A model generated the notes under the pieces. The model was not told the origin of the DNA. It ran no database searches and saw only the letters and a list, made by a program, of their open reading frames with translations. Below, in pieces: positions 31,653 through 41,811 of a DNA stretch of 64,000 bases. The stretch lies in the sequence record OZ335958.1; one strand, written 5' to 3'. A program made the position numbers and the translations under genes. The stretch's first letter is position 1, and every line of letters begins with the position of its first letter. The DNA comes from a phage.

Positions 31653-31982
31653 TCAATTAGAAAATAAATTTATCCAAGATTGTTCTTTAATTAAAAATGG
31701 CTCAGAATCATATGCCATTAAACTTTGTGTGATTAGTCCTTTAAAAGGCCCATCAATAAATTCCATAGTAAAATATGGAATTTTATTCATTAGTCGTGCA
31801 TTAGGAGCAGTGCACAAAACTCTGCATCCTTTGAATACGCCTTTTTGTAATTTGTACTGCTTAGGATAAAATTCGCTCAAGACGTTATTATTTGCCAAAA
31901 TTTCAAAATGATTCACCAACTTATTTTTAATAGTTTTTGGTGAAAAATAAAGATATTCGAAAAGCTGTGTGTCTGTCATCAT
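31653..31982 (-). CDS. Hypothetical protein (start at internal Met forming ATGA overlap)
   Basis: ORF-track 31653-32033 trimmed. Confidence 0.45.
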   Translation of the reverse strand: MMTDTQLFEYLYFSPKTIKNKLVNHFEILANNNVLSEFYPKQYKLQKGVFKGCRVLCTAPNARLMNKIPYFTMEFIDGPFKGLITQSLMAYDSEPFLIKEQSWINLFSN

Positions 31983-32566
31983 TGCATTCCAATCACAAAA
32001 AATTGAGGACGAGTAATACCGCCAATGCAGCATTTACTGTTGCAGCAGTGTTGCACAGTTTCAATATGAATATCATAAATTTTATCCATATCAGGAGATT
32101 TAACAGGCTCATCGATTATATACAAGATTCGAGAAAGCGATAAACCTCTGAACTTGCTACCTCTATTACCAATAAAACTACGGACAGAATCGGTAAATAA
32201 GCGGAATCGGATATCATCGCTAGAATAACGAGAAAATTCTTTTTTAATGTGGCCTGCAGAAATTTTAGCGTAAGCTGAAGTGTTAGAAAGAACAATAACT
32301 GTTCCACCATCATACAGCCAATTAGCAGCAAAATTAGTCACAGCAGTTGATTTACCGGATTGACGTCCACCATCTAGTCGAAGTGTACAATACTGTTTGA
32401 GCAAGTCTTCAAATGGTAGGATATAATCGTTTTTACAAATTTCTTCTACTCTAGCATCAGAATGGTGTGTAAAAGCATTCATCAGGGATAGATAAGGACC
32501 AGTTAAAAATGTTCTCATTTTATTCTCTCTAAATTTGGGCCATTCCATGGCGCGTGAATTGTCCAT
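31979..32566 (-). CDS. P-loop NTPase-like protein
   Basis: 195 aa with Walker A GGRQSGKST. Confidence 0.5.
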   Translation of the reverse strand: MDNSRAMEWPKFRENKMRTFLTGPYLSLMNAFTHHSDARVEEICKNDYILPFEDLLKQYCTLRLDGGRQSGKSTAVTNFAANWLYDGGTVIVLSNTSAYAKISAGHIKKEFSRYSSDDIRFRLFTDSVRSFIGNRGSKFRGLSLSRILYIIDEPVKSPDMDKIYDIHIETVQHCCNSKCCIGGITRPQFFVIGMQ

Positions 32567-32671
32567 TTCTGTATTTACCCATTACCGCACTTGGGCTCGA
32601 CCTTATTACAGGTTGGCGGGAATCCCTCATAGAATCATGAAGTCCAGCTTGTTCCCATATTTCTTATTTGC

Positions 32672-33145
32672 TTATTTGAATGATTTGACGTACTGAATAG
32701 AGCCTTTGCTATTCACGAAAGCGATTTTACCATTTTTGTTATACATGGTAGCAGTACGCTGATAGCCATAAGTTTGCTTACCAGATTGATAACCAACTAG
32801 TGCGAAATTATCTTCACCCATTTTATTCTGCTTAGCGCGGATACGTTCATGACCGTGCGCCATAAGAACCTTAGCATCACCAGTTGCAATGGATCTACGA
32901 GTTTTTTCATCTTCAACTGTATTAACAAAGTCGTCAAATGAATCAAATTTAGCATGAGATTTATTATACAGTTTTCCATCTACTGCATAATTATATCCCT
33001 GTACATCCATCTCAACTTCTGTACCATCATCTAATACAGCAGTGATTTTTTGACCTTTTTTAAATTTCAAAAGATCAGTAAAAGATTCAGCAATAATTTG
33101 AGAATTAATAGCTGCTTCAGTGATAAATTCTTGATATGTTTTCAT
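32672..33145 (-). CDS. Internal-protein-like protein with capsid-targeting leader
   Basis: 157 aa starting MKTYQEFITEAAINSQIIAES: T4 IP capsid-targeting sequence consensus with I-x-E prohead-protease sites. Confidence 0.6.
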   Translation of the reverse strand: MKTYQEFITEAAINSQIIAESFTDLLKFKKGQKITAVLDDGTEVEMDVQGYNYAVDGKLYNKSHAKFDSFDDFVNTVEDEKTRRSIATGDAKVLMAHGHERIRAKQNKMGEDNFALVGYQSGKQTYGYQRTATMYNKNGKIAFVNSKGSIQYVKSFK

Positions 33146-33154
33146 GTGTTTCCT

Positions 33155-33571
33155 TTAAATGTAAATATTTTTGCCGTAGTATTTATACCAGTGTGGCTTC
33201 ATTAAAATTTTTTCATCGAGTCGTTGTTGACTCAATTTAATAGCCGATTTGCATTGGTTATAATCATTTTTCCATTCTGCTGGAATATCGCTGATGTCAG
33301 GAACTTCAGTATCTTTTATACTAAACCCACGTTTTAAGCATTCCGCTATAATGTCTGATTGACGCTTTCGCAAAAATTCTAACTTATCATAAAAGAACGT
33401 AACATGACCAGAACCTAAAATAAACTCGGAAGATATTTTAAAATCTTTAACCCGCTTACCATTTGCCACATGTTTACGAACTATACCAAAAACACGTGGC
33501 AATTCACGGTATTCTGCGATTAAATGTTGATCAGCAAGTTCAGATACTAAAGTCAAATTAATACGAGTCAT
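33155..33571 (-). CDS. denV: Endonuclease V (pyrimidine-dimer DNA glycosylase) DenV
   Basis: 138 aa [29 protein letters not shown]; matches T4 DenV. Confidence 0.92.
33179..33186 (-). promoter_or_regulatory. Late promoter (TATAAATA on minus strand) upstream of the IP-like gene
   Basis: Plus-strand tatttata ~34 bp upstream of the 33145 start. Confidence 0.5.
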
Positions 33572-33589
33572 TTTATCCCTCCTAGAATT

Positions 33590-33625
33590 GTGAATATACT
33601 ATCACAATTCTAGGAGAAAGTAAAC
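33590..33625 (-). promoter_or_regulatory. T4-type early promoter candidate upstream of denV
   Basis: gaatatactatcac...aaagtaaac. Confidence 0.45.
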
Positions 33626-33629
33626 AACT

Positions 33630-34160
<531 letters not shown>

Positions 34161-37647: not shown

Positions 37648-38121
37648 TTATTTGATTTGTTTAGCAGACCAAATGCGGTCTTTAATAATTTTTTGAATGT
37701 CTTCAACATACTCAAGAGAGTGAACGTGTGGATTATCTTTGAAACTATAAGCACGGGCTAACTTTTGGCCTTCGGTTTTGATTACTAAAAGCTCTTTAAG
37801 GATAGCTTCATATTTAGCGATAATTCCTTTAACGATATTTTTTTCTTGTGCCGCTTTAGGATCTGCTTTAGGAGCAGGTTTACCCGAAGGCTTTGCAAAA
37901 GCAGCTCCAGTAGCAACTAAACTTTTCCAGGCCATACTAACTGCATTTCCCGTAAATCCTTCTGCTTTCATGTCGCGAGCAAATTGGAATCGTGATTCGT
38001 CAGAAGCATCTTTATAGGAATATTTACCCGCTGCAATGGCTGCTTTTGCGACAGCTTGAATTTCGGTGCTAGATGCTTCATTTAACACCGCTTCATTTAA
38101 AAATTGAGCATATGATTTCAT
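37648..38121 (-). CDS. Internal-protein-like protein with capsid-targeting leader
   Basis: 157 aa starting MKSYAQFLNEAVLNEA (IP leader with L-N-E cleavage motifs), Ala/Lys/Pro-rich centre. Confidence 0.55.
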   Translation of the reverse strand: MKSYAQFLNEAVLNEASSTEIQAVAKAAIAAGKYSYKDASDESRFQFARDMKAEGFTGNAVSMAWKSLVATGAAFAKPSGKPAPKADPKAAQEKNIVKGIIAKYEAILKELLVIKTEGQKLARAYSFKDNPHVHSLEYVEDIQKIIKDRIWSAKQIK

Positions 38122-38161: not shown

Positions 38162-38169
38162 TATTTATA
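38162..38169 (-). promoter_or_regulatory. Late promoter (TATAAATA on minus strand)
   Basis: tatttata on plus strand ~40 bp upstream of 38121 start. Confidence 0.5.
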
Positions 38170-41240: not shown

Positions 41241-41474
41241 TTATTTTTTACGAAAAATTGATTTATTTTCTGCTGCCCATTTTTCAATAACTGCAGCAGG
41301 ACCAGTAACAACAATTTTATCACCGTAATCTTCTGCGGCGAGTTGACCGAAATTATCTAATGCATCACGAAGAACTCCATGAGGCATTTCACCCATTTTA
41401 TCTTTCTTGCCGGTGTAAATAAACTCAACTTTTACATCAGAAGATTCAGCGATAAATTCTTGATAAGTTTTCAT
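41241..41474 (-). CDS. Internal protein (IPI-locus type) with capsid-targeting leader
   Basis: 78 aa from MKTYQEFIAESSDVK..., exact T4 IP leader MKTYQEFIAE. Confidence 0.65.
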   Translation of the reverse strand: MKTYQEFIAESSDVKVEFIYTGKKDKMGEMPHGVLRDALDNFGQLAAEDYGDKIVVTGPAAVIEKWAAENKSIFRKK

Positions 41475-41553: not shown

Positions 41554-41811
41554 TTATTTTAAATCTTCTAATCGTTTCTTCATCTTAGAACCATTTTTAG
41601 CAATTTCTCCTGCATCGGAGCATAATGCTAAAAGTGCTTTAACTTTCGTTTGGTCTCCTTTAAAAGATGAAGGATCTACTGCAGCAGCAAGTTCTTTAAT
41701 ACGAGAGAAAAGACGCTCAGCTTCAGCTAAAGCCATTCCAAGCTTTACTTCCATACCGTGGGAAGATTCAGTGATAGTAGTTTTTGCAGCAAACTCTTTG
41801 AAAGTTTTCAT
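41554..41811 (-). CDS. Internal-protein-like small protein with IP-type leader
   Basis: 85 aa starting MKTFKEFAAKTTITES (leader variant with I-T-E site). Confidence 0.55.
   Translation of the reverse strand: MKTFKEFAAKTTITESSHGMEVKLGMALAEAERLFSRIKELAAAVDPSSFKGDQTKVKALLALCSDAGEIAKNGSKMKKRLEDLK

Follow-up and report, generated by a model that had tools for sequence, protein, structure and literature searches.

The internal protein gene ipIV (Ip4) downstream of denV in a T4-like phage: a probable packaged protein and a candidate inhibitor of host defense

Analysis of the region between the e and vs.8 genes in a 64-kb stretch of phage DNA (sequence record OZ335958.1; this whole stretch is hereinafter called the window) indicates that the gene located immediately downstream of denV is, virtually beyond doubt, the known, named ipIV (Ip4) gene of the T2-type Tequatrovirus phages. 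The explanation that we favor, with a rough probability of 0.6 for the explanation as a whole, is that this gene encodes a protein that would be packaged into the phage head, processed and injected, and would act as an inhibitor of host defense. The components of this explanation differ in strength: by analogy with the internal proteins of T4, packaging and processing of Ip4 appear likely, and an anti-defense role is proposed tentatively, at slightly less than even odds. As a genome feature, ip4 adds nothing new; the initial annotation of this region was correct but ordinary in that the gene already has a name and belongs to established Pfam and PHROG families.

The body of the encoded protein was originally described as not recognizable, and this part of the description did not survive a homology search. 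Over its entire length (residues 1-157, aligned with positions 1-158 of the 158-position profile), Ip4 matches the Pfam family PF24183 (DUF7412), with a score of 319.4 bits against the curated cut-off of 27 (E 5.7e-96), and it also matches phrog_3155, annotated as 'internal virion protein' (E 6e-102). At the amino acid level, it is 100% identical to T2 ipIV, RB32 Ip4 and ipIV of Yersinia phage PST, and 99.4% identical to Ip4 of RB51 and wV7; the exact sequence is found on 459 contigs and carries the UniRef name 'IpIV internal head protein'. Searches of PADLOC and NCBIfam with Ip4 yielded no meaningful match. Among the 50,697 phage records searched with tblastn, the family is represented in 471, in 307 of which the identity to Ip4 is at least 95%; a second cluster, at 60-80% identity, consists largely of proteins from T4-like Klebsiella and Salmonella phages. 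When 1.84 billion cluster representatives were searched exhaustively with an HMM, only 7 proteins were detected, three of which are distant homologs with 34-36% identity to Ip4. Judging by these searches, the Ip4 family is confined to T4-like phages.

All features that the initial annotation had ascribed to the 157 aa open reading frame are indeed present (Table 1). The N-terminus, MKTYQEFITEAAINSQIIAES, contains the two I-x-E sites, namely, I-T-E (residues 8-10) and I-A-E (residues 18-20); the His-rich patch, MAHGHERIRAK, corresponds to residues 95-105; and the Gly/Tyr-rich C-terminal part reads VGYQSGKQTYGYQRT.... Comparison of ip4 with four other copies of the gene (from T2, pSs-1 and two IMG/VR contigs) reveals 9-24 nucleotide differences and 0 amino acid changes, and the 20-24 differences from the T2 and L005 copies are all synonymous. 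The exclusively synonymous character of the changes across the copies implies strong purifying selection; ip4 is a real, intact gene that evolves under this constraint.

Table 1. Coordinates of ip4, its constituent parts and its neighbors in the window
Feature	Coordinates	Strand	Remarks
ip4 (ipIV) CDS	32672..33145	-	ATG start, 157 aa + stop codon; identified from the ORF list, Pfam, PHROG and identity to T2/RB32
Codons 1-10, MKTYQEFITE	33116..33145	-	leader resembling a capsid-targeting sequence; ends in the first gp21-type site, I-T-E
Codons 11-20, AAINSQIIAE	33086..33115	-	second propeptide segment; ends in the second gp21-type site, I-A-E
Predicted mature Ip4* body, residues 21-157	32675..33085	-	137 aa, 15.5 kDa, pI 9.3
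TATAAATA	33180..33187	-	putative promoter; exact match to consensus; within denV codons W-Y-K-Y-Y; ATG 34 nt on
26-nt 5' flank, AAAAATATTTACATTTAAAGGAAACA	33147..33172	-	same as the DNA before T4 ipII; carries AAGGA and the final denV codons (K-N-I-Y-I-stop)
Shine-Dalgarno AAGGA	33151-33155	-	good ribosome-binding site, 5 nt ahead of the ip4 ATG; overlaps the denV stop codon
3' junction, GGGAACAAGCTGGACTTCATGATT...	32567..32656	-	same as the DNA right after the denV stop in T4, and after ipIV in T2 and L005; four contexts aligned by eye
denV (endonuclease V), upstream neighbor	33155..33571	-	ORF list and comparison with T4
vs.8 homolog, downstream neighbor	31979..32566	-	87% identity to T4 vs.8 over 195 aa
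e (lysozyme), two genes upstream of ip4	33630..34124	-	two copies of TATAAATA ahead, 34138-34145 and 34151-34158

The proposal that the gene encodes an IP-like protein with a capsid-targeting leader and two gp21-type sites is borne out by comparison with T4 and with homologs. The Ip4 leader matches MKTYQEFIAE, the leader of T4 IPII and IPIII, in 9 of 10 residues, and the match to the IPIII N-terminus extends to 10 of 13 residues. In the 12 close homologs that retain an N-terminus, the first site conforms to [LIM]-x-E and the second one to hydrophobic-x-E, mostly [LIM]-x-E; at both positions, L-N-E is found in two of the three distant homologs. These distant proteins (34-36% identity) start with MNF..FLNES or contain LNES slightly further in, so an L-x-E leader is kept. 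In IPIII, a leader of 10 residues is enough for the protein to be incorporated into the prohead core, and gp21 removes this leader (PMC9026906); in the findings of Mullaney and Black (1996) to the extent that they are summarized in PMC9026906, gp21 cleaves after L/I-x-E and packaging is leader-dependent. The predicted gp21 site of Ip4 fits this pattern in that the leader ends in (L/I)-x-E and the putative mature body is free of such motifs, I-T-E and I-A-E being the only [LI]-x-E motifs in the entire protein, as expected of a protein that must survive gp21. In the searchable literature, we found no report of virion proteomics, N-terminal sequencing or transcript mapping of Ip4.

The possibility that ip4 is a T4 ipII or ipIII gene in a new location was addressed by searching for full-length homology, with a negative result. 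In BLASTP and tblastn comparisons of Ip4 with IPII and IPIII, only the leader, approximately residues 1-13, aligns; a 75-residue alignment of Ip4 with IPII, at 31% identity, is driven by the leader, and the bodies of the T4 IPII and IPIII proteins are absent from the entire window. The T4 proteins and Ip4 are alike in the leader, the 5' flank with the ribosome-binding site, the gene neighborhood (e ... vs.8) and the basic character of the protein, and the route of packaging, gp21 trimming and injection is presumed to be common to them. Unlike Ip4, however, the T4 genes are located upstream of denV, GmrSD targets have been identified for Ip2 and Ip3, and there is no detectable similarity between the bodies.

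The order of genes on the minus strand of the window is nudE, e, denV, ip4 and the vs.8 homolog, and pSs-1 has the same e, denV, ip4, vs.8 arrangement. The T4 order is e, ipIII, ipII, denV, vs.8, so the view that ip4 occupies a slot different from that of the T4 ipII and ipIII genes is confirmed by the comparison of synteny: ip4 lies downstream of denV whereas the T4 genes lie upstream of it. The layout in the window is common, given that 304 records cover at least 80% of the 2.3-kb vs.8-ip4-denV-e stretch in one piece (megablast). In T2, where the order is e, ipIV, an ORF, vs.7, there is no denV, and ipIV comes straight after e, behind an intergenic region of the T4 ipIII type: the 70 nt ahead of T2 ipIV are almost identical to those ahead of T4 ipIII. 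Thus, the phage analyzed here and T2 (along with RB32, RB51 and wV7) have the same protein, of the same length and with the same leader and 3' junction, but in this phage, the gene follows denV and has an ipII-type flank.

This flank encodes the end of denV. The C-terminus of the denV product is KNIYI here and KAIYA in T4, and the last five codons of denV come from the ipII-type 5' flank (33155..33172, minus strand), so that, on the upstream side, the recombination junction falls within the end of denV. On the other side, 15 nt past the ip4 stop codon, the sequence turns into GGGAACAAGCTGGAC..., the DNA found immediately after the denV stop codon in T4 and after ipIV in T2 and L005. As an accessory gene in a hyperplastic region, ip4 is present, absent or relocated among T4, T2, pSs-1, L005 and Salmonella phages, with shared flanks. 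Thus, as far as can be judged from these alignments, ip genes behave as exchangeable cassettes, with the shared flank, ribosome-binding site and leader on one side and a fixed downstream junction on the other side. Recombination within the shared stretch that comprises the flank, ribosome-binding site and leader appears to be the means by which the cassettes move, and in the present case, the last codons of denV appear to have been rewritten in the process. In several T4-like contigs from IMG/VR, other leader-bearing genes, unrelated to ip4, follow denV, namely, a 108 aa one starting with MEYKMKTYQEFITES... (L009, L012 and L014) and an 86 aa one starting with MKMYQEFITEAD... (L029 and L036), at a distance of 9-39 nt from denV. 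The slot after denV hence seems to be a general landing site for internal-protein cassettes. The original description of the ip polymorphism is reportedly that of Repoila et al. in 1994.

Two features of the surrounding DNA deserve a separate description. In the spacer between e and denV (33572..33629, minus strand), AGTTGTTTACTTTCTCCTAGAATTGTGATAGTATATTCACAATTCTAGGAGGGATAAA, an early-promoter-like pair, GTTTAC...TATATT, is combined with a long inverted repeat, CTAGAATTGTGA...TCACAATTCTAG; T4 ipIII, T4 ipII and T2 ipIV are each preceded by a near-copy of this module. The spacer resembles a recurring module of promoter and palindrome, and the reshuffling of the e-vs.8 region might take place there. 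At the other end of the region, the first ~15 residues of the 195-aa vs.8 homolog (31979..32566, minus strand) are unlike those of T4 vs.8, and the T4-type start (MRDSRQPVIRS...) belongs to a separate 33-aa ORF (32529..32630, minus strand) in another frame, which, when set against the T4 annotation, points to either a frameshift or another start site.

The motif TATAAATA, which is an exact match to the T4 late-promoter consensus, occurs 13 times in the 64-kb window compared to 10.8 occurrences expected from shuffled sequence, that is, without enrichment. Its placement, in contrast to its count, is strongly non-random: 8 of the 13 copies sit 10-40 nt before the ATG of a same-strand ORF of at least 60 aa where 0.44 would be expected (binomial P = 2e-9), and the copy ahead of ip4 is one of these eight. 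The motif had been reported to lie about 34 bp upstream of the gene; the distance from its last base to the ATG is exactly 34 nt, but the end coordinate originally given for the region, 33186, is one base short of the end of the motif, 33187. The further assertion that ip4 has a private late promoter is upheld as far as the motif goes, in that it is exact and well placed, at a distance typical of such motifs, and has to be narrowed to a lineage-specific, motif-level feature. The motif is kept at both other denV-ip4 junctions examined (pSs-1 and L004), but none is found within 600 nt of ipIV in T2, within 700 nt upstream in L005, where a different ORF precedes the gene for the same protein, or within 700 nt upstream in the Salmonella-phage homolog loci L006 and L007. 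At the corresponding position, T4 denV reads TACAAATA, and so do other T4-like denV genes that are followed by a leader-bearing gene; conversely, L039 has TATAAATA ahead of a gene without a capsid-targeting leader. On this comparison, the presence of the motif before ip4 is specific to the lineage of the phage analyzed here. It is a probable working late promoter; late read-through from the two copies of the motif before e, across denV, could also extend into ip4.

We also considered the idea that a synonymous TAC-to-TAT change in denV had created the promoter. This idea is weakened because the denV allele in the window differs from that of T4 at 123 of 417 nucleotides (29%) and 31 of 138 residues, so that the TAT/TAC difference cannot be taken for one change that was selected; moreover, TACAAATA is retained in other lineages with a leader-bearing gene after denV, and in L039, TATAAATA precedes a leaderless gene.

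Other leader-bearing genes are present in the window. A second 157-aa ORF (37648..38121, minus strand) starts with MKSYAQFLNEAVLNEASS, a leader-like sequence (M-K-S/T-Y-x-x-F-L-x-E) that contains two L-x-E sites; 40 nt upstream of the ORF, there is an exact TATAAATA (38162-38169, minus strand). This ORF belongs to PHROG 2280 ('unknown function') and to no Pfam family; of the 512 matching phage records, 25 rows were sampled, and in all 25, it is either a 'hypothetical protein' or unannotated. Paralogy with Ip4 was considered and rejected given the lack of similarity between the two proteins. The product of this ORF may represent an unrecognized family of internal (injected) proteins, and it is a better lead than ip4. 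Two more leader-bearing ip genes occupy the ipI locus of the window (41241..41474 and 41554..41811, both minus strand); one encodes a 77 aa protein, MKTYQEFIAES... (PHROG 8111), and the other one an 85 aa protein, MKTFKEFAAKTTITES... (PHROG 3499).

Across the wider set of homologs, the invariant residues of Ip4 are G31, V48, G50, K58, N61, K62, A65, L94, N107, K108, A115, Q120, G122, G127, Y128 and T131. An AlphaFold2 model built with the distant homologs added has a mean pLDDT of 83.8 and a pTM of 0.78; the block means of pLDDT are 84-95 over most of the body, with the exception of residues 121-130, and residues 10-18 are below 50, that is, the leader is predicted to be disordered and the body is modelled with confidence. 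The predicted elements are a beta-hairpin, three helices and a four-stranded meander. A profile search of the PDB sequences yielded nothing below E 0.5, a Foldseek comparison of the first Ip4 model (pLDDT 70) with the PDB gave no match at E <= 0.001, and the matches from fold searches with Ip4 included no solved anti-restriction protein.

Several other interpretations of Ip4 have to be weighed against these observations. Since the ip genes have in common a 5' flank and leader-coding DNA that look like recombination substrates, the leader could have been acquired passively, as a scar of recombination between ip cassettes, in which case Ip4 would not be packaged and would act inside the infected cell late in infection. 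We regard this as very improbable: homologs with identity as low as 61% retain the leader together with both [LIM]-x-E sites, those with 34-36% identity still have MNF..FLNE leaders although they lack the common flanking DNA, and the body lacks internal [LI]-x-E motifs, as would be the case for a protein that withstands gp21. The His-rich patch brings to mind an injected enzyme in which H64, H97 and H99 would form a metal-binding or catalytic site; the MAHGHERIRAK patch does exist, H99 is invariant and H64 is invariant among the close homologs. In the distant homologs P0015-P0017, however, none of the three histidines is conserved (H64 is replaced by D, A and A, H97 by K, L and Y, and H99 by Y, F and a gap), so we rejected the patch as an active site; considering also that no search produced a match to an enzyme family or an enzyme fold, catalysis by Ip4 is hardly credible. 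The lack of conservation of the histidines is suggestive of a binder rather than an enzyme.

An unlikely but more substantial alternative is that Ip4 is, primarily, a structural or DNA-associated component of the head that is involved in core or scaffold assembly or in neutralization of the DNA charge and has no specific host target. The basic pI of the mature form would be compatible with such a role, and so would the very strong conservation, with synonymous change only across the Tequatrovirus copies. In a published screen of active GmrSD variants, none was reproducibly inhibited by ip4-10 (PMC12373910), which would agree with a protein that has no restriction target, the 'ip4' of that study being equated with Ip4 by name only; furthermore, IPIII- and IP0 mutants show aberrations of head assembly (PMC9026906), and IPIII mutants raise polyhead formation in T4. 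Against a structural role, T4 builds normal heads without ip4, and the unrelated bodies of ipII and ipIII are swapped in at the locus, which is the behavior of an accessory gene rather than a structural one. In addition, all four internal proteins of known function are defense inhibitors, and the fold predicted for Ip4 is compact and globular rather than that of an extended, DNA-coating peptide.

The preferred reading, under which Ip4 is a packaged, processed and injected inhibitor of host defense, can be elaborated along the lines of T4 biology. The Ip4 precursor would be made late in infection, and its leader would dock it onto the prohead scaffolding core; after removal of 10 or 20 residues by the gp21 protease, the basic mature protein of ~15.5 kDa would stay in the head and enter the host with the DNA. 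Once injected, Ip4 might, by analogy, inhibit a host defense directed against modified T-even DNA in a stoichiometric, non-enzymatic manner, with some type IV restriction system as the most probable target. Such inhibition by internal proteins is not unprecedented. Ip1, Ip2 and Ip3 of T4 each inhibit one variant of the GmrSD type IV restriction enzyme, with no cross-protection (PMC12373910). The model for the mechanism proposed for Ip4 is T4 IPI*, the ipI product that inhibits GmrSD of E. coli CT596 and belongs to the same class of small, leader-bearing, gp21-processed, injected proteins encoded in a hyperplastic region; unlike ip4, ipI is located between 57B and the tRNA genes, and its sequence is unrelated. 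The leader-bearing Bas37_0260 protein of Tequatrovirus Bas37, encoded by one of the two genes at the ipI locus of that phage, has only the N-terminal signal in common with the T4 internal proteins and blocks McrBC (bioRxiv 10.1101/2025.11.20.689424), so the class of leader-bearing inhibitors reaches beyond GmrSD.

Given that none of the GmrSD variants screened was a reproducible target of ip4-10, the target of Ip4, if the protein is indeed an anti-restriction factor, would lie outside the screened panel. The near-invariance of Ip4 in Tequatrovirus, furthermore, is unlike the diversification that an inhibitor engaged in an arms race might show. A still more tentative version of the anti-defense proposal, to which we assign a somewhat lower probability than to the anti-defense role as such, is that Ip4 inhibits a defense beyond the screened GmrSD variants by means of a small-barrel fold without a solved relative. 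Under this version, and with the same degree of caution, the candidate targets are McrBC/Mrr-type enzymes, another modification-dependent nuclease or an anti-hmC DNA glycosylase. If this is the case, the near-invariance of Ip4 would mean that the targeted defense is itself conserved and widespread, and this could help to explain why e-denV-ip4 is the commonest layout among the sequenced Tequatrovirus genomes.

Among the leader-bearing internal proteins, four are now known to counter type IV restriction enzymes, whereas Ip4, the internal protein of T2 at this locus that is carried by ~300 Tequatrovirus records, is left without a target despite a published screen and is, in this sense, a well-defined orphan. 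Identification of the Ip4 target would add one pair to the catalog of defense and counter-defense systems and might explain differences in host range between T4-type and T2-type phages.
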